This document shows, in pieces, positions 13,208 to 38,886 of a stretch of 64,000 nucleotides of DNA. Within the stretch, counting starts at the first letter, position 1. The number at the start of each line of letters is the position of its first letter. The stretch comes from an uncultured candidatus Porisulfidus sp. GTDB lineage: Bacteria; Pseudomonadota; Gammaproteobacteria; Poriferisulfidales; Oxydemutatoraceae. The notes under the pieces are model-generated. The model made no database searches. It worked only from the letters and a program-made list of their open reading frames with translations, and was not told where the DNA came from. Where the stretch lies: NCBI GenBank assembly GCA_965215125.1, contig OZ244052.1, positions 896,001 through 960,000 of the forward strand, read 5' to 3'. Made by a program: the position numbers and the translations under genes.

Positions 13208-13521
13208 AACACTCCCCCTAAGGGCGGACATGCAAGTCCGCCCCTACGGAGGGGTGTTAGGCGTAGCGTATCTGCACAAGTATAGTGTCAGTACATTCCC
13301 CTCCTTCGGAGGGGTGGCCTATGCATTTTGCAATGCATGCGTTTAGCAGTAATGTTGAGGTTCTGAACAAAGTCACGCCGATTGACCTACTGGTTCAATC
13401 GGCAGTTCTATTCAGCCTGACGGGGTGGTCTCCAACCGCTTGCGCCATTTGGTTTTGGTTTCCATAAACTGCGATGAATAAATGTATAAATCATGCAGGC
13501 GCAACGCGTTACAGGCGGACA
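13208..13521. repeat. Mosaic REP/MITE cluster including an unoccupied REP target GGGCGGACATGCAAGTCCGCCCCTAC (13222-13247)
   Basis: Hairpin REP ending CTAC; 13293-13430 nearly identical to 20197-20331. Confidence 0.9.
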
Positions 13522-13544
13522 GATATATTAAACCGCAGCTTATT

Positions 13545-13740
13545 TGATATAAGATAAACGCTTAGGTAGATGCAGTGCCTAGGAAGTCGGAGGAGACACG
13601 CTGCAGGACGGACAAGGCATTAAAGCCTGGTTGCATGAAAAGCACTCCTCCGGCGTTATGACTATAGAGCTCGAAAGGCATCTTGGGACTTTAGATCTCG
13701 TATTTATCTGTTTGAGCGGCGTAGTCATACTTTCCTAGAC
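13545..13740 (+). ncRNA. Predicted IS110 bridge RNA (target-binding and donor-binding loops); ends approximate
   Basis: GGACGGACA (13606-14)/hairpin/TTGCATG (13631-37) match target; AAGGCATC (13675-82)/hairpin/TATCTG (13705-10) match circle junction; enclosing stems GGAGGAG/CTCCTCC and ATGACTAT/GTAGTCAT. Confidence 0.85.
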
Positions 13741-13795
13741 TTTGCTTGCTACCTATTATTTCATTAACTCAACAACCCATATGGAGAACATTATT

Positions 13796-14782
13796 ATGGA
13801 AAACAAACAACCCGTCACAATTGGCGTTGATGTCTCTAAAGAGACTTTAGAAACAGCTCTATTATTCACCGATAATAGTTTTGCCGAGCAGCAATTCAGT
13901 AATGATGCCAAAGGCATTAAACAACTGTTATCTTGGGCTACCGAGCATGGTGCGCAACAGTGTCGCCTCTGCGTTGAGGCAACCGGCGGTTTTGAGCTAG
14001 ACCTGTGCATGGAAAGCTATGACCAACATCCCATCACGATTGTGCCACCTGTACAGGTCGCGAGCTACCGCAAAACGCTGGGTATGCGTAATAAAACCGA
14101 TGGCGTTGATGCGCAACTCATCGCACGCTTCGCATTTGCAGTCGGTGATATTCAAGACTGGGAACAGCCTACCGAAGCAGTATTCGCCTTGAGAGATACA
14201 CTGAAATGGCGCCGGCAATTAACCAAGTCCCATACGCAGTTAAGCAACTGTGCAAAGACGCTGCGCAGTATGCAGCTCAAAAAGAAGGCAGCTGCAGAAC
14301 TCGCTCACCTCCAGAAGCAAATCCATGAGTGTGACGCCTTACTTTACGAAATCATCGCTGAAGACGAACAACTCACACAGCAGTATCAATTGCTCTGCTC
14401 TATTACTGGAATCGGAACTCAAACCGCAGCCACCCTATGTGCAGCTTTTGATGATAATACGTTTCAACACCCAAAGCAACTTGCCGCCTATATCGGCATC
14501 ACTCCGATGCGCAAGCAATCCGGCAACTACGAGGCGAAGGCGCACATCTCTAAAATTGGCGATGCACACCTGCGCACCGCACTATTTATGGCGGCACTCT
14601 CGGCTCGGGTTCATAACCCAATCGTCCGTGCGTTCGCCGACCAGTTAAGCCGGCGGCGTCCGGATTTAACCAAAAAGCAGGTTATTGTTGCTTGCGCCCA
14701 TAAACTGACGCGTATCATTTACGGAATACTCAAGCACAAGAAACCGTTTGACCCGAATTATTGTTGCGTATCTGCGTCCTAA
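13796..14782 (+). CDS. IS110-family DEDD recombinase/transposase
   Basis: GVDVSK, VEATG, KTDGVDA (DEDD) and QSG (Tnp-domain Ser); GGAG RBS before ATG 13796. Confidence 0.95.
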   Translation: MENKQPVTIGVDVSKETLETALLFTDNSFAEQQFSNDAKGIKQLLSWATEHGAQQCRLCVEATGGFELDLCMESYDQHPITIVPPVQVASYRKTLGMRNKTDGVDAQLIARFAFAVGDIQDWEQPTEAVFALRDTLKWRRQLTKSHTQLSNCAKTLRSMQLKKKAAAELAHLQKQIHECDALLYEIIAEDEQLTQQYQLLCSITGIGTQTAATLCAAFDDNTFQHPKQLAAYIGITPMRKQSGNYEAKAHISKIGDAHLRTALFMAALSARVHNPIVRAFADQLSRRRPDLTKKQVIVACAHKLTRIIYGILKHKKPFDPNYCCVSAS

Positions 14783-14966
14783 ATTGATACTCAGAAGAGA
14801 AGATAGAAAAAGATAAAAAACGAATAAAATAACTTGACTTTGAATAAGGCATCATGCAAGTCCGCCCCTACAATTGGTTTGCGTAATTAGGGGGCGCACA
14901 GCGGTTGGATTTTTGCGCTGCCAATACTTTTACAACAGCCCCGTAGTTTAATGCTAAAATGGCGTA

Positions 14967-17679: not shown

Positions 17680-17772
17680 ATAGCCTGACAGGGTGGTTGC
17701 AGAAATGGGGCTGTTGAAAAAGTATCCATGAACTATAGGGACGGTACATTCCCCTCCTGTGGAGGGGTGGCA
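17680..17772. repeat. REP/MITE module cut by IS1380 insertion
   Basis: GGGGCTGTTGAAAAAGTATCC...GGAGGGGTGGCA identical to ~19783-19848. Confidence 0.85.
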
Positions 17773-19581
17773 CCCTAATTCCGCAATAGACCACCTGCAA
17801 AAGTCCGTAATCTCTTATGTTGCAACACTCTCATGCATATTCCCAATTCACCCATTAGGTGAAACATAATTATTACTAATTTTTTACATAAAACTCTGTA
17901 CAACGCCTTATTTTTTTGTTACTATTTACCAATTAATAACTTCGGAGGTATTATGTCAAAACAAAAAAATCAGCACAATCAATCATCGTATACGCTAGCT
18001 ACCACCCACCAGAAATTGACCTCTCGTTGTGGTTTGTTGGCATTGATTAAAGTGCTCAAAGCACTACAACTTAAGCCACAAGCAGACACTGTGTTTGCGG
18101 CACCGGGTAGCAATCGTGGCTACCGCAATGGCGACATTCTAACGAGCTTCATCTTGATGCTCAACGAGGGTGCGAGATGCCTTGAGGATGTCTGCCATTT
18201 ACACACCGAAAGGGTGTTGCTTAAGCTGGGAGGTATTAACAAGATACCGGGAGCAGACACTTTGGCGAGGTGGTTGAAACGCCATGGTCAAGCCGGTGCC
18301 GGTTTAGTTCACCAGCTCAATCGCACGGTGATTGCCAAGACCCTGAAGTTGTGGAAAGTAAAGCATGTGACTTTGGATATTGATGCGACTACTATTTTGA
18401 CCGAGAAAGTCGGTGCTAAATGGACGCGTTTTAAGGAGCGTGGTTTCATGCTAATGGTCGGCACGCTAGCTGAAGTGGGTCAAGTCATCGCCGTTGAGTT
18501 GCGCCACGGCAATGTCTCCCCGAACTTTGATAATATCGGTTTCATCAAGACCTGCCAAGCACAGTTGCCGAGTGGCGTAATACTCAAGCGGGTGCGTATC
18601 GACTCGGCAGGGTATCAACAAGCAATCATTGAATATCTAGTAGCTCAAGGAATAGAGTTTGTTATTCGTGCGCCGATGTACCCGTCAATAGCGCAAGCGA
18701 TTGCTGGTCTGTCGGAAGCAGACTGGCGACCATTGCGATTAAGCGACGGCAGTTTATCACCCCACGACTATGTGGCTCGCTGCACTTATCAGATGTATCG
18801 CAGCAACCTCGTATTTACGCTAGTCATTCAACGCCGCCTCAAGAGCGAAGCCGCTCGACAGTCTAACCAACCGGAGTTGTCGGGACTGTCTGAACAGCTG
18901 CGCTATCAACCCGACAAGTATGACTATCGTGTGATTGCGACTAACATCAACGGGCTAGACGATGCACAGATTGTACATGAGTATAATCAACGCGGTGAGC
19001 ATTCCGAAAACCGCATTAAAGAACTCAAATCGGATTTTGTTGCCGGTCGTTTGCCGTGTAGTGATTTTGCTGCCAATGCTCTGTATGTTTGTGTGTGTGC
19101 TTTAGCCTACAATGTGTTCGCACTGATGCGTGCCGGCTTAGCTAAACAGTTTCGTTCCTCTAGAGCCCCGACGCTCAGGGTCCGCCTGTTTGGTTTAGCG
19201 GCGAAGATTGTACGACAGGGTCGGCAATGGAAGCTCAAACTACACGAAGTGCATCGTAGTTTATTGAGTGGAGTTTTCTCAGACCTTGATGAGACTATCG
19301 GCAAGCTATTGCCGGATATGCGATACCCCTTGCTACATTAACTAGCCACCTTATCTCTTCATTACTCATAAGGCATCAATCAAAGTAGATGCCATGCCCC
19401 AGCATACCCTAATACTAGAGATTAGAGTACTTTGATGCTTCATTTAGCTCTCAATAGGAGTTTATCTCCCGTCACCGAGCAATGATGTGGCATTCAGTTT
19501 CGGGTTCAGGCGATTGCCCTGATAATTTAGCAGTAAATTATCCATCACATGCAATTTTCATGCTCTATTGAGAAATTAGGG
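17773..19581 (+). mobile_element. IS1380-family element, copy 1 (1809 bp)
   Basis: IRs CCCTAATTCCGCAATAGA / TCTATTGAGAAATTAGGG; 5-bp TGGCA duplication. Confidence 0.93.
17953..19341 (+). CDS. IS1380-family DDE transposase
   Basis: LTSRCGL, TLDIDAT, LRHGN, RIDSAGY, YNQRG..ENRIKELK. Confidence 0.93.
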   Translation: MSKQKNQHNQSSYTLATTHQKLTSRCGLLALIKVLKALQLKPQADTVFAAPGSNRGYRNGDILTSFILMLNEGARCLEDVCHLHTERVLLKLGGINKIPGADTLARWLKRHGQAGAGLVHQLNRTVIAKTLKLWKVKHVTLDIDATTILTEKVGAKWTRFKERGFMLMVGTLAEVGQVIAVELRHGNVSPNFDNIGFIKTCQAQLPSGVILKRVRIDSAGYQQAIIEYLVAQGIEFVIRAPMYPSIAQAIAGLSEADWRPLRLSDGSLSPHDYVARCTYQMYRSNLVFTLVIQRRLKSEAARQSNQPELSGLSEQLRYQPDKYDYRVIATNINGLDDAQIVHEYNQRGEHSENRIKELKSDFVAGRLPCSDFAANALYVCVCALAYNVFALMRAGLAKQFRSSRAPTLRVRLFGLAAKIVRQGRQWKLKLHEVHRSLLSGVFSDLDETIGKLLPDMRYPLLH

Positions 19582-20475
19582 TGGCAGGCGCAATAGAACC
19601 GCCGTTTGTTGTAAATAACCGTTCCTTGTTGCAGTAGCACAAGGAACGTCACCTTATACAAGATTCAGCTATTTATGGCTGTTAGAAATAATACGAATAG
19701 CAAAGACAAACGGCGTGACATTGTGCAGAACTTTGATACATAGTACAAAATGTAAAGCCTTTCCTTGGGGTGGTCGCAGCGTGGGGCTGTTGAAAAAGTA
19801 TCCATGAACTATAGGGACGGTACATTCCCCTCCTGTGGAGGGGTGGCAGGCGTAGCCTGACGGGGTGGTTGTCAAATATGGAAACCATAATCGGGCGGCG
19901 CAAAGCGATTGGGTTCTTGCAAAACGGGACTTTTTCAACAGCCCCGTCGTATCTGTACTATGTTTATACATTTATCCATCCAATTTATGGAAACCATTAT
20001 TTGTTGGCGCAAGCGGTTGGTGTCGTGCAGAACGGTACTTAAGGGCAGACATCAGAATTGCCGATTGACCTACTGGCTCAATCGGCGGCTTTATCCTGCT
20101 CCTACAGGTGGTTTGCAAATATTCACGACGCAAGCAGTTACGGTTGCACGCTGACGATACTTTTTCAACAGCCCCAGAAATATCTGCACAATTTAATTCC
20201 CCTCCTTCGGAGGGGTGGCCTATGCATTTTGCAATGCATGCGTTTAGCAGTCATGTTGAGGTTTTGAACGAAGTCACGCCGATTGACCTACTGGTTCAAT
20301 CGGCGGTTCTCTTCAGCCTGACGGGGTGGTCGCCGGGGTCTTGCACAATGTCACGCCGATTAACCTACGGGCTTAATCGGCAGCTTTGTTCTGCCCCTAC
20401 AGGTGGTTTGGATAATTATGCGGCGCACAGCGGTTGAGTTTGTGCGATGTCCGCACTTTTTCAACAGGCCCAAGT
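19582..20475. repeat. Large nested REP/MITE cluster (~900 bp)
   Basis: Multiple GGCTGTTGAAAAAG/CTTTTTCAACAG ends, CCCCTCC hairpins, GCCGATTGACCTACTGG palindromes, GCCCCTAC REP ends. Confidence 0.9.
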
Positions 20476-34954: not shown

Positions 34955-35207
34955 GTATGGGACTGTTGAAAAAGTACCCACGAACTGTAGGACGGTACAT
35001 TCCCCTCCTTCGGAGGGGTGGCAGGCGCAATAGAACCGCCGATTGAGCCAGTAGGTCAATCGGCAATTATGATGTCCGCCCGTAACGTATCATGTTTGCA
35101 CGATTAACGCGTTCACCCATTAATATTATGGAAACCATTATTTGTTGGCGCAAGCGGTTGGTGTCGTGTAGAACGGTACTTAAGGGCAGACACACAGGTC
35201 TGCCCCT
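34955..35207. repeat. REP/MITE cluster ending in REP GGGCAGACACACAGGTCTGCCCCT, split by an IS
   Basis: Same modules as other clusters; continues at 38785-38885. Confidence 0.88.
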
Positions 35208-35439
35208 GATATGGATGACCAGCTTGTCAAGATTAAATTTTTACCGAAGTCTACATTCCCAAGAGTCACCAGAACTCAAGGGTTAAATGACGGCACAGAT
35301 GATGCCAACAGGGAGCGAGCGATAGCAATGCGCCACCCCTCTTAAAGCATGCATCAGGTATGTGTATGCGCCACTTGTCGTGGCGGCTTTCGTGCACCTG
35401 CTTTATCTCCTTGTTAACGGCATCATGCTGTACCGAAGA

Positions 35440-35700
35440 GAGACAGAGCGAAGCACCGCTAAAGTACTCAACTAATGAGTCGTTCGGTATTATCAACCTC
35501 ATATTCGTGTACTTTGCTTTCGCATTACCACATGATAAGTCAATTGGATGAACTGTGCCCCTTAATCTACGGTCAGTTGCCTTGCCACGCATCATGCCTG
35601 GCAGTTTTCTATGGGCAGATACTCTAGGACGGCATCTAAGTTCGGAACTTGTCATTGACTTTAGCTTCAACTCTCTCGGTCTCTCAGAACTCTATCTGGC
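35440..35700 (-). ncRNA. Putative bridge/seek RNA in the 3' non-coding end of the IS1111-type element; ends approximate
   Basis: RNA sense UCUGCCCAU-hairpin-CCGUAG resembles target TCTGCCCCT/CTACGG; AUAUGAG resembles junction ATATCAG. Confidence 0.6.
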
Positions 35701-35980
35701 AGCCTCTTGCTTAACGAGCTTGCTCAACCACCGTTGCCGCGTGCAATGCGTTTTCAGCGGCCTGGGCAGCACGCAAGGCTTCCCACACAAAACCGAGTAG
35801 CTCTCTGGCACACGCCACCTTAATCTTGTTGAATGGTTTGTTGGCATGATACATCGTCTGATACTTCTTATACAAACGCTTCATGCAACGGTCGCCTATC
35901 TCTATAGCCACTAGGTCTTGGTCGGCGCGTCGGACACGCAATGCCTTATTCACGCTATAGCGTCTACCCGCCAACTGGCA

Positions 35981-37789
35981 CCCTAATTCCGCAATAGACC
36001 ACCTGCAAAAGTCCGTAATCTCTTATGTTGCAACACTCTCATGCATATTCCCAATTCACCCATTAGGTGAAACATAATTATTACTAATTTTTTACATAAA
36101 ACTCTGTACAACGCCTTATTTTTTTGTTACTATTTACCAATTAATAACTTCGGAGGTATTATGTCAAAACAAAAAAATCAGCACAATCAATCATCGTATA
36201 CGCTAGCTACCACCCACCAGAAATTGACCTCTCGTTGTGGTTTGTTGGCATTGATTAAAGTGCTCAAAGCACTACAACTTAAGCCACAAGCAGACACTGT
36301 GTTTGCGGCACCGGGTAGCAATCGTGGCTACCGCAATGGCGACATTCTAACGAGCTTCATCTTGATGCTCAACGAGGGTGCGAGATGCCTTGAGGATGTC
36401 TGCCATTTACACACCGAAAGGGTGTTGCTTAAGCTGGGAGGTATTAACAAGATACCGGGAGCAGACACTTTGGCGAGGTGGTTGAAACGCCATGGTCAAG
36501 CCGGTGCCGGTTTAGTTCACCAGCTCAATCGCACGGTGATTGCCAAGACCCTGAAGTTGTGGAAAGTAAAGCATGTGACTTTGGATATTGATGCGACTAC
36601 TATTTTGACCGAGAAAGTCGGTGCTAAATGGACGCGTTTTAAGGAGCGTGGTTTCATGCTAATGGTCGGCACGCTAGCTGAAGTGGGTCAAGTCATCGCC
36701 GTTGAGTTGCGCCACGGCAATGTCTCCCCGAACTTTGATAATATCGGTTTCATCAAGACCTGCCAAGCACAGTTGCCGAGTGGCGTAATACTCAAGCGGG
36801 TGCGTATCGACTCGGCAGGGTATCAACAAGCAATCATTGAATATCTAGTAGCTCAAGGAATAGAGTTTGTTATTCGTGCGCCGATGTACCCGTCAATAGC
36901 GCAAGCGATTGCTGGTCTGTCGGAAGCAGACTGGCGACCATTGCGATTAAGCGACGGCAGTTTATCACCCCACGACTATGTGGCTCGCTGCACTTATCAG
37001 ATGTATCGCAGCAACCTCGTATTTACGCTAGTCATTCAACGCCGCCTCAAGAGCGAAGCCGCCCGACAGTCTAACCAACCGGAGTTGTCGGGACTGTCTG
37101 AACAGCTGCGCTATCAACCCGACAAGTATGACTATCGTGTGATTGCGACTAACATCAACGGGCTAGACGATGCACAGATTGTACATGAGTATAATCAACG
37201 CGGTGAGCATTCCGAAAACCGCATTAAAGAACTCAAATCGGATTTTGTTGCCGGTCGTTTGCCGTGTAGTGATTTTGCTGCCAATGCTCTGTATGTTTGT
37301 GTGTGTGCTTTAGCCTACAATGTGTTCGCACTGATGCGTGCCGGCTTAGCTAAACAGTTTCGTTCCTCTAGAGCCCCGACGCTCAGGGTCCGCCTGTTTG
37401 GTTTAGCGGCGAAGATTGTACGACAGGGTCGGCAATGGAAGCTCAAACTACACGAAGTGCATCGTAGTTTATTGAGTGGAGTTTTCTCAGACCTTGATGA
37501 GACTATCGGCAAGCTATTGCCGGATATGCGATACCCCTTGCTACATTAACTAGCCACCTTATCTCTTCATTACTCATAAGGCATCAATCAAAGTAGATGC
37601 CATGCCCCAGCATACCCTAATACTAGAGATTAGAGTACTTTGATGCTTCATTTAGCTCTCAATAGGAGTTTATCTCCCGTCACCGAGCAATGATGTGGCA
37701 TTCAGTTTCGGGTTCAGGCGATTGCCCTGATAATTTAGCAGTAAATTATCCATCACATGCAATTTTCATGCTCTATTGAGAAATTAGGG
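35981..37789 (+). mobile_element. IS1380-family element, copy 2 (1809 bp)
   Basis: Same IRs and TGGCA duplication as copy 1; identical protein. Confidence 0.93.
36161..37549 (+). CDS. IS1380-family DDE transposase
   Basis: Identical translation to 17953-19341. Confidence 0.93.
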   Translation: MSKQKNQHNQSSYTLATTHQKLTSRCGLLALIKVLKALQLKPQADTVFAAPGSNRGYRNGDILTSFILMLNEGARCLEDVCHLHTERVLLKLGGINKIPGADTLARWLKRHGQAGAGLVHQLNRTVIAKTLKLWKVKHVTLDIDATTILTEKVGAKWTRFKERGFMLMVGTLAEVGQVIAVELRHGNVSPNFDNIGFIKTCQAQLPSGVILKRVRIDSAGYQQAIIEYLVAQGIEFVIRAPMYPSIAQAIAGLSEADWRPLRLSDGSLSPHDYVARCTYQMYRSNLVFTLVIQRRLKSEAARQSNQPELSGLSEQLRYQPDKYDYRVIATNINGLDDAQIVHEYNQRGEHSENRIKELKSDFVAGRLPCSDFAANALYVCVCALAYNVFALMRAGLAKQFRSSRAPTLRVRLFGLAAKIVRQGRQWKLKLHEVHRSLLSGVFSDLDETIGKLLPDMRYPLLH

Positions 37790-38886
37790 TGGCAGGCTTC
37801 CACGCACGCCGTGCGGATGTATTTGTTGCCCATCCCGGTAATACCCCCTTTGCGACTCTTGCCACCGGAACTATACTCACTGATACTCAAGCCGGCATAA
37901 CCGGCCAGATGACGCGCCTTGACAAACCGACCGATGTCGCCAATCTCAACAATCAGCGTCATCGCAATCAACTCGGCAATGCCTCTGATACAACATAAAT
38001 AGCCGACCGCCCGACGATACGGCTCGGATATCGCTAACTGATGTATATCGTTCTCATAGCGTCTGATAACCCCTTGTTGCGTCTCCAATAGATACAGCTT
38101 GTTCTCTAAATCGAGGCGGAAATACTTATCTAAACTGTCGTCGACTAGCAACCGCTTTAAGAATGCCATGTGTTGCTTCGTCCAATAGCTCTTAGCCTGC
38201 ATACTGGTGCGATAACTAATCCCGCGATAACGGCACGACGACAAAATCTGCAGTTTATAGATCTTGCAGGTGTTGACCACTTGTTGGCGTCCACGAATGA
38301 GTTGTCGGTGACCTTCGCTCTCAGTATCAATATCGTGGACGATTTTCAACATACCTTGTCGGTAGTATTCAGCCAGCTTAACGCTATCTAAATGATCAGT
38401 CTTGATGCGATCCGAGGGGCGCACCGGGATCAGCGACGGCGCAATCACATCGCAGTGAATGCCCAGCGCATCAAATTGTCGCTTTAACGAAAAGCCTAAA
38501 TAGCTTGCTTCATAACAGACCCTAATCTGTTCATACGGCAAAGCGATTTTGGTGATTGCCTTATGCAATGATGCAAAGTCCGGGCGAGTTTTAATGGAAT
38601 GATAATTATTGTGTTTAGAAATGGCTGTGGCAGTGAAACGATTATCATCAACATCAATGCCAACATACAGTATACTAGTCATGGATGACCTCCTTTGTTT
38701 AGTGGTTAATTAAACCCCTCTTAAGAGGGGAACTAAAATGAAAGTTTAACCAACTTTCAGCAAAGCTGGTCATCCATACTATCTACGGCTTGGTGGTTAT
38801 TATAAATTCACGGCGCAAGCGGTTACGGTTGCACGCTGATGATACTTTTTCAACAGCCCCGTCGTGTCTGTACGAAGTACAGTCGT

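Follow-up and report, generated by a model that had tools for sequence, protein, structure and literature searches.

The 64,000 nt window analysed here, positions 896,001 to 960,000 of contig OZ244052.1 (assembly GCA_965215125.1) from an uncultured candidatus Porisulfidus sp., forms part of a 2.22-Mb single-contig genome (G000), which was compared with three others of the same genus (G001, G003 and G004). On its reverse strand, at 35208..38784, it hosts a 3577 bp composite comprised of an IS1111-group insertion sequence (IS) and an IS1380-like element nested within it, adjoining the hairpin of a Repetitive Extragenic Palindrome (REP). An earlier reading of the same letters (hereafter the sequence-only reading) had proposed an RNA-guided element of IS1111 type at a REP's tail, with a transposase disrupted by an IS1380-like insertion and a nesting order of REP, then IS1111, then IS1380; each of these points holds. 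The anatomy of the element, its target and its empty sites, together with a common RNA scaffold and guide-target covariation, are established by sequence comparison, and its identification as a broken copy of an ordinary RNA-guided IS110/IS1111-type element, aimed beside a REP hairpin, is well supported.

Anatomy, copies and target of the element

The boundaries of the composite, which include one copy of the AG core (38784-38783), were set from five copies in the genome and from empty sites. On the forward strand the flanks rejoin as GGTCTGCCC-CT-ACGG, with copies of CT at 35206-35207 and 38783-38784; in the transposase sense, the junctions read ..CCGT|AG-ATAGTATGG.. and ..CCATATG-AG|GGGCAGA.., with AG common to both and zero duplication. 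All four genome copies that have both ends carry AG at both junctions, and empty sites have a single AG. The left end (38765..38784, reverse strand) consists of the AG core, an extension of 4-5 nt and the sub-terminal inverted repeat (IR) TATGGATGACCAGC (38778-38765 in the transposase sense). The right end (35208..35230, reverse strand) consists of an outward-pointing TTGACA (35230-35225), the IR GCTGGTCATCCATA (35223-35210) and an extension of 2-3 nt, which ends in C in the window copy (..CCATATC) and in G in the other three copies having a right end (..CCATATG). These IRs are 13-14 bp long; taking the count that is shorter by one base, and including the left core AG, the left extension measures 7 nt and the right one 3 nt. 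The rejoining flanks, the IRs at 3 and 7 nt, a further IR at the start codon and the TTGACA had all been described in the sequence-only reading and are present where it placed them.

Five copies of the IS1111-type element, A to E, were found by BLAST of the genome. Copy A is that of the window, 3577 bp in length with a 1813-bp element nested inside. Copies B and C are intact, which answers the call for such copies made when the element was first noted; they are ~1.76 kb long, with a transposase open reading frame (ORF) of 382 aa rather than the 385 aa originally expected, and empty targets are likewise found in the genome. Copy D has the nested element at the position matching that in copy A, the nested element itself being broken by another IS. 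Copy E (G000:C1:1427342-1429620) has a full transposase ORF and only the first 87 nt of the non-coding region, after which a reversed fragment of an IS110-type element begins, such that the right end is missing. Hence two copies are intact, two have been disabled by the IS1380-like element and one is truncated. In all four sequencing runs, DNA contigs skip exactly 3577 nt and 1814 nt, in agreement with the boundaries, with sides of 22-30 nt; these skips are no sign of excision or polymorphism, being explained by paralogous empty REPs and intact copies.

The transposase gene of the window copy is split at approximately codon 298 by the nested element. Codons 1 to ~297 (37792..38682, reverse strand) encode the DEDD/RuvC-like domain and most of Transposase_20, and are 97% identical to the intact copy; the C-terminal remnant (35711..35978, reverse strand) retains approximately the last 85 codons, with the stop codon TAA reading CAA so that the frame extends for three codons. 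The ORF at 38682-37753 (reverse strand) matches the Pfam domains DEDD_Tnp_IS110 (PF01548; 29.9 bits, relative to a cut-off of 29) and Transposase_20 (PF02371; 61.3 bits), and residues D10, D99, S271 and G273 are invariant, with E58 and D96 nearly so, across 21 aligned relatives. This pair of domains, along with site-specific insertion without target duplication and a common core dinucleotide, accords with the IS110 family. The sub-terminal IRs with short extensions, and the long non-coding region downstream of the transposase gene (509-511 nt, versus 102 nt upstream), accord with the IS1111 group, defined by sub-terminal IRs of 7-17 bp and by short terminal extensions, 7 nt at the left end and 3 nt at the right (PMC11187229). 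By contrast with the 330-350 aa and C-terminal motif GL-P----S/TG of IS1111-family transposases (PMC11187229), the protein is 382 aa long and has the motif GL/F-I----SG, in which Ile replaces Pro, as it also does in the consensus of the 21 relatives. IS5708-type plasmid matches are 23-24% identical to it. Taken as a whole, the sequence very probably represents an IS1111-group member of the IS110 family encoding a DEDD recombinase. Within the non-coding region, a 134-aa ORF (35670-35266, reverse strand) remains uninterrupted in each of copies A, B and C and has no Pfam match; it was rejected as a gene, as indels of 1 nt and 7 nt shift its frame in G004.

The target REP hairpin and core occupy 35184..35207 on the forward strand, with GGGCAGA..TCTGCCC at 35184-35205 followed by the core CT. 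In the transposase sense, the element lies in CCGT-AG-GGGCAGA, adjoining the hairpin. The genome contains 34 hairpins of the form GGGCAGA-N5-9-TCTGCCC and 88 of the wider REP family, with five exact instances of the uninterrupted target 13-mer CCGTAGGGGCAGA, two of which are identical to the rejoined flanks over ~70 nt, and 23 further empty sites of the form GTAGGGGCAGA. Because empty sites match the rejoined flanks, the target can be defined as a 13-nt word at the foot of the GGGCAGA..TCTGCCC REP hairpin. Elsewhere in the genus, target words recur at fixed spacings of ~267, 193, 85 and 125 nt (G004:C2:265432-272294; G003:C1:470255-471027, 633015-633270 and 1019378-1019753), which suggests tandem arrays containing the REP.

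The predicted bridge/seekRNA and its guides

The 3' non-coding region of IS1111-group elements yields a seekRNA in which the match to the top strand of the target lies 5' of that to the bottom strand (PMC11187229), and 93% of IS1111 elements are predicted to carry a bridge RNA in their right end (PMC11208160). Relatives of the element were collected through a scan of one genome per species, which gave 80 loci from other genomes with 36% to 96% identity in the best segment. Eight are from the same genus (six from G004 and one each from G001 and G003), with the remainder, from Bdellovibrionota, Gammaproteobacteria and other phyla, being 36-52% identical. The architecture of the left end recurs in 42 of the 80 loci as AG+4nt+TAT(G/A)GA(T/C)G, and that of the right end in 51, as ..ATA+2nt+AG.

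The predicted bridge/seekRNA gene of the window element (35486..35636, reverse strand) corresponds to the ~150 nt at the start of the 3' non-coding region, comprising a target-binding loop and then a donor-binding loop, on a scaffold common to more than 60 relatives of 36-52% protein identity. Following the stop codon, this scaffold consists of the stems P1 and P2, a variable segment, a hairpin P3 (with CUUAG or CUGAG at its base), a second variable segment plus AG, the 3' strands of P2 and P1, the stem P4, a short segment, a hairpin P5, the motif GAAUA(U/C)GAGG and the 3' strand of P4. RNAalifold on a plain MAFFT alignment of 46 sequences returned only three pairs, stems being out of register between clades, and was replaced by a covariance model of 24 relatives with a hand-set structure. 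With this model, the RNA was found directly 3' of the transposase gene in all 61 loci searched (39-153 bits); in the model alignment 94.4% of cells pair, relative to 84.1% in shuffles and 22-46% when partners are slid, and 18 of the 23 scaffold pairs exhibit compensatory change. A manual alignment has 20 invariant columns in 46 sequences. Searches of Rfam gave no matches at gathering scores over the window, and three sub-threshold chance matches at E values up to 10 over 35150-35800; Rfam 15 is without any model that detects the predicted bridge/seekRNA. No promoter-like or terminator-like site was found inside 35100-36000.

Within this scaffold, UCUGCCC (35613..35619, reverse strand) is antisense to GGGCAGA and CCGUAG (35567..35572, reverse strand) is the sense of CCGT-AG. 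The order of these words, with the top-strand match first, is that of IS1111-type seekRNAs (PMC11187229). When the 503-nt non-coding region was shuffled 20000 times by mononucleotide, TCTGCCC arose in 1.7% of shuffles, CCGTAG in 10% and the putative donor word ATATGAG in 4.2%, and TCTGCCC followed by CCGTAG within 80 nt in 0.015%. G004 allows a direct comparison, as an element with a 74% identical transposase is present there in six or more copies: the RNA is otherwise conserved, and three letters change exactly as the targets do, along with a one-base indel beside the right guide. The right guide changes from UCUGCCC in G000 to UCCGCCC in G004 and G001 as right targets change from GGGCAGA to G|GGCGGA, and the left guide from CCGUAG in G000 to CUUUAG in G004 as left targets change from CCGT-AG to CTTT-AG; of the six G004 copies fetched, five are at CTTT-AG-GGCGGA and one at CGTT-AG-GGCGGA. 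Since both REP subtypes are present in both genomes (GTAGGGGCAGA 23 times in G000 and 76 times in G004, TTTAGGGCGGA 8 and 45 times respectively), the difference represents re-targeting and not a shortage of sites.

The same behaviour is evident across the family. At the homologous position of the right guide, an antisense match of at least 6 nt to the relative's own right flank exists in 22 of 41 distinct relatives, compared with 4.3% of 1624 mismatched pairs; at that of the left guide, a sense match of at least 6 nt to the relative's left flank plus AG exists in 14 of 26, compared with 4.9% of 594 mismatched pairs. UCUGCCC and CCGUAG are, on this evidence of covariation between sequences, the right-target guide and the left-target-plus-core guide, as the proposal that guide letters should change with the target had anticipated. 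Four words in total had been identified as possible guides, and all are present in the RNA sense at the positions originally noted; covariation backs three of them, UCUGCCC, CCGUAG and AUAUGAG. The fourth, AGGGGCA (35556..35562, reverse strand), is invariant in G000, G003, G004 and G001 despite their differing targets, and aligns with the 3' strands of P2 (UCCU/AGGG) and P1 (UGCC/GGCA), homologous stems that covary in the family; it is therefore a stem strand and not a guide.

The 13 nt involved could instead represent a REP fragment, captured through recombination or left by an old nested REP, beside a protein that reads the hairpin without any guiding. UCUGCCC is indeed identical to the distal REP arm, and REPs are abundant, with the 88 hairpins of the wider family. 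Such an origin is nonetheless extremely improbable: the words occupy fixed scaffold positions in more than 60 relatives, with flanks related neither to each other's nor to the REP; the corresponding positions in those relatives match their own flanks; and CCGUAG lies outside the REP stem and becomes CUUUAG along with the target in G004.

Of the donor guides, AUAUGAG (35498..35504, reverse strand) is the sense of the right end plus core, ATATG+AG, and in 47 of 49 relatives this left-donor segment, either AUAUGAG or AUACGAG, agrees with the right end of the relative concerned (the exceptions being loci L045 and L059). UUAUC (35534..35538, reverse strand), antisense to G|ATA(G/A) at the left end, is probably the right-donor guide, with moderate support from its counterparts: G004 has AUUAUC for a left end of AG-ATAAT, clade-2 relatives have AUCUU for AAGAT, and locus L072 has ACCUU for AAGGT. 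Dinucleotides resembling a handshake after the donor guide were too weak to claim, the first base matching the right flank in 35 of 48 cases versus 58% of mismatched pairs, and both bases in 13 of 48 versus 18%. Apart from small insertions, the 5' side of the donor loop (35528-35552, reverse strand; GUUCAUCCAAUU(G/A)ACUUAUC) looks like the left end, repeat included, in full reverse complement, a likeness confined to this lineage and not seen in the RNA of relatives.

It is also conceivable that the RNA acts mainly on the donor side, in excision, and that the choice of target additionally requires the folded REP or a host factor, the 13-nt word being insufficient. The donor guide is the best conserved (47/49), the target guides are short, with the left comprised of 4 nt plus the core, and within the genome the right guide is perfect at only three of four right junctions and the left CCGT exact at two of five copies; furthermore, every insertion in the genus is at a REP. 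Relatives outside the genus, by contrast, insert at non-REP flanks that still match their guides, and published IS1111 seekRNAs were reprogrammed through the target matches alone (PMC11187229), making a mainly donor-side role very unlikely.

Several observations nevertheless weigh against a guide RNA that specifies the target through these four segments. The structural counts come from an alignment fitted to the model and from relatives that are not independent, such that the figures lean towards the structure, and among the sequencing runs listed as holding the sequence there was no RNA run. The proposal that a covariance model be built for the 3' end succeeded for the 61 loci of relatives and fared less well in the window's own lineage: a second model, R2, built from the sequences of the 61 relatives, recognises that lineage weakly (35624-35483 in the window at 17.3 bits, E 0.054; G004 at 26.5 bits, E 3.7e-4) and puts the 5' half out of register, so that homology of the lineage's target loop rests on MAFFT alignments, position, conserved motifs and guide behaviour. 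At least 6 nt of match is lacking for the right guide in 19 of 41 relatives and for the left guide in 12 of 26. The right guide of G000, which has one extra base 5' of it, pairs with positions +1 to +7 after the core, whereas those of G004 and most relatives include the core G, and opposite the core A the base is A or G in place of U. Copy D, at CCCT-AG-GGCATAC, and a derivative in G003, at CCCT-AG-GGGCTTA, are imperfect matches to the guides; the clade-1 match of the right-donor guide is weak, mostly ~3 nt; and the terminal base of the window copy's right end, C, mismatches the G of its donor guide.

Between the predicted RNA and the right end, the lineage has an additional structured domain of ~250 nt (35235..35481, reverse strand), not found in relatives outside the genus. 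The non-coding region is accordingly 509-511 nt in this lineage, compared with no more than 305 nt in 49 of 51 relatives. The domain is conserved in G000, G001, G003 and G004, has a minimum free energy of -90.3 kcal/mol (shuffles -69.3 +/- 5.2) and contains a long-range stem, CAUGAUGCC/GGCAUCAU, with compensatory change at two pairs when G000 and G004 are compared. The idea of a second, decayed bridge RNA was considered and rejected, the domain's local alignment score against the bridge part, 17, equalling the shuffle mean of 16.9, and R2 gives no second match in an intact copy; BLAST of the genome showed no copy of the domain standing apart from the element, and Rfam gave only sub-threshold chance matches at E values up to 10 over 35150-35800. 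It is rather doubtful that it represents a functional third RNA module, as opposed to filler; were it one, the bridge RNA would possess an accessory domain, and this might serve as a platform for processing or stabilisation, or regulate excision versus insertion.

Leader, proposed mobility and interactions with other elements

In the leader (38672..38784, reverse strand), the left IR pairs with GGAGGUCAUCCAUG, which contains the Shine-Dalgarno sequence and start codon. The fold of these 113 nt has an energy of -43.2 kcal/mol (z -6.4), and an inverted third copy of the repeat at 38690-38678 overlaps the ribosome-binding site and ATG. Among relatives, the start codon is overlapped by an inverted copy of the element's own left repeat (at least 8 of 9 nt) in 35 of 42, covarying between two clades; the published accounts of the family, in the parts available, make no mention of it. 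At the opposite end, the TTGACA points outward, 17 nt from the last base of the element, and relatives have a -35-like box at the matching place. When the ends are joined via the AG core, TTGACA lies 18 nt from the GATAGT of the left end, as read from the ends rather than scanned for; this candidate -10 box matches at only four of six positions, which tells against a promoter.

By analogy with the mechanism established for the family, the element would excise as a circle, and the circle would re-insert through recombinase-catalysed strand exchange at the two-base core, AG in the transposase sense and CT on the forward strand. It is inferred that the predicted bridge/seekRNA encoded just 3' of the transposase gene would be produced and bound, and would choose the insertion site: in its first loop, UCUGCCC would pair with GGGCAGA, on the top strand in the right half of the target, and CCGUAG with the bottom strand of the left half and core, CCGT-AG; in the second loop, AUAUGAG would pair at the right end and core, and UUAUC probably at the left end. 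The site specified by the RNA would be the 13-nt word CCGT-AG-GGGCAGA at the REP hairpin foot. End joining would create a junction promoter, TTGACA-18 nt-GATAGT. In read-through transcripts, the left IR would fold over the ribosome-binding site and start codon and block translation, while a transcript from the junction promoter would start inside the 5' arm and escape this occlusion.

As the recombinase gene of the window copy is cut and its RNA gene and both ends remain, this copy could at most be moved in trans by the two intact copies. Its sub-terminal repeats, core and RNA gene are all intact, and published systems are reported to move unrelated cargo between their ends (PMC11187229). Against such trans-mobilisation, which would be by analogy, stand the right end ..ATATC facing a guide of AUAUG, the 1.8 kb of extra DNA and the finding of no sign that the composite has moved, copy D carrying the IS1380-like element reversed and hence reflecting an independent event rather than a transposed composite. 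Whether the window copy is a wholly inert relic, immobile even in trans, is evenly balanced.

The nested IS1380-like element (35979..37791, forward strand) is 1813 bp long, with 10-bp terminal IRs (CACCCTAATT/AATTAGGGTG) and a transposase of 462 aa (36161-37549, forward strand) matching Pfam DDE_Tnp_1_4 (PF13701; E 1.5e-43), a combination typical of the IS1380 family. Members of that family generate target duplications of 4-5 bp; this element, by contrast, duplicates at most 1 bp (G). All six of its genome copies (window 35979-37791 and 17771-19583; G000:C1 331084-332896, 1075486-1077298, 1115590-1118540 and 1434048-1435860) are at TGG^(G)CAGGC, in either orientation. Four lie in an abundant repeat, in which the empty target GGGGTGGCAGGC occurs 123 times and GGGGTGGGCAGGC not at all, and the other two at one spot in the IS1111-type transposase gene, AACTGGCAGGCTT; as these last, in copies A and D, have opposite orientations relative to the gene, they represent two independent insertions at one hot spot. 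Target choice is unusually strict for a DDE element of the IS1380 family. The IS1380-like element of copy D is itself interrupted by a further IS of ~1.13 kb (G000:C1:1116904-1118036), one of nine full-length copies in the genome, giving four nesting levels.

The window also contains an IS110-type element (13514-14873) inside the loop of a REP, arranged as GGCGGA-CA-[element]-CA-TGCAAGTCCGCC, with right flank TGCAAG; its empty site, GGCGGACATGCAAGTCCGCC, is present in the genome. The IS1111-type element sits just outside the REP stem at AG/CT, and the IS110-type element within the loop, such that the two use different positions and, in this genome, different subtypes (CAGA and CGGA respectively) of one REP family. 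The sequence-only reading had described two unrelated systems partitioning one REP family between CA and CT sites: this is accurate as a description of the sites, although the two are not unrelated, both being DEDD elements of the IS110 family. Elsewhere in the genome, the IS110-type element is represented by three near-identical copies, at 96-100%, together with four of a relative at 81%; a TTGACT lies near its right end.

Relatives and known systems

In a large protein search, the closest protein is 75% identical to the transposase and the next tier no more than 49%; a metagenome scan with a single protein gave only one distant locus. Within the genus, G001 has a 3' fragment of the element and G003 an internally deleted derivative with codons 1-78 fused to the non-coding region, which may be a non-autonomous form. 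This derivative (L092:1399-2256) retains both ends, codons 1-78 and the whole RNA region, 93% identical to that of G000, with a right-target guide of UUCGCCC.

Bridge/seekRNA elements have already been described, and the element itself is ordinary. What G000 and G004 offer is a natural re-targeting pair, with one RNA scaffold, three changed guide positions and a one-base indel, and two REP subtypes. In addition, a covariance model and alignment are provided for a clade in which all four guide positions can be read, the lineage-specific RNA domain offers a testable role, and the locus illustrates how site-specific mobile elements disable one another in a small symbiont genome.

The closest named relative among the matches listed from plasmid records is ISEc45 (named by PGAP), an IS110-like element of the Escherichia coli plasmid pAA-09EL50 (NC_018654), with 29.9% tblastn identity over 94% of the query. 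Like the window lineage, it has a long transposase (1134-nt coding sequence), sub-terminal inverted repeats and a match to the RNA model R2 directly 3' of the stop codon (33.9 bits, E 2e-7); it differs in its repeat sequence, TATGACCTTT, and in a non-coding region without the extra ~250-nt domain. Judged from sequence, the clade of the window element includes ISEc45 and spans several phyla.

Among elements with a REP target, ISPa11, of the IS1111 group in Pseudomonas aeruginosa, likewise possesses sub-terminal repeats, and its 3' non-coding region is the source of a seekRNA that co-purifies with the transposase, with the top-strand match 5' of the bottom-strand match (PMC11187229); its host and REP are different, and it is likened here by published description and not by sequence. 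ISPpu9, of the IS110 group in P. putida, resembles the element in its REP target, its AG crossover in the transposase sense and an additional RNA module located downstream of the gene for its transposase, although that module, ssr9, is bounded by a pair of ends of its own and is independently mobile (PMC12288879). Similarly, the work on IS621, also of the IS110 group, describes a bridge RNA with target and donor loops, each having one guide per DNA strand flanking a two-base core, and a DEDD recombinase (PMC11208160; PMC13626964); IS621 differs in that its RNA is encoded 5' of the gene, its guides come in the opposite order and long sub-terminal repeats are absent. The nearest parallel to the genus-level comparison is that of ISEc11 and ISXne4, IS1111-group elements forming an experimentally demonstrated seekRNA system with a junction promoter, and described as a case of natural re-direction in which the stems are conserved and the target matches altered (PMC11187229). 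The G000 and G004 pair resembles this re-direction, differing from it in being a switch between two subtypes of one REP family, both of which are found in both genomes.

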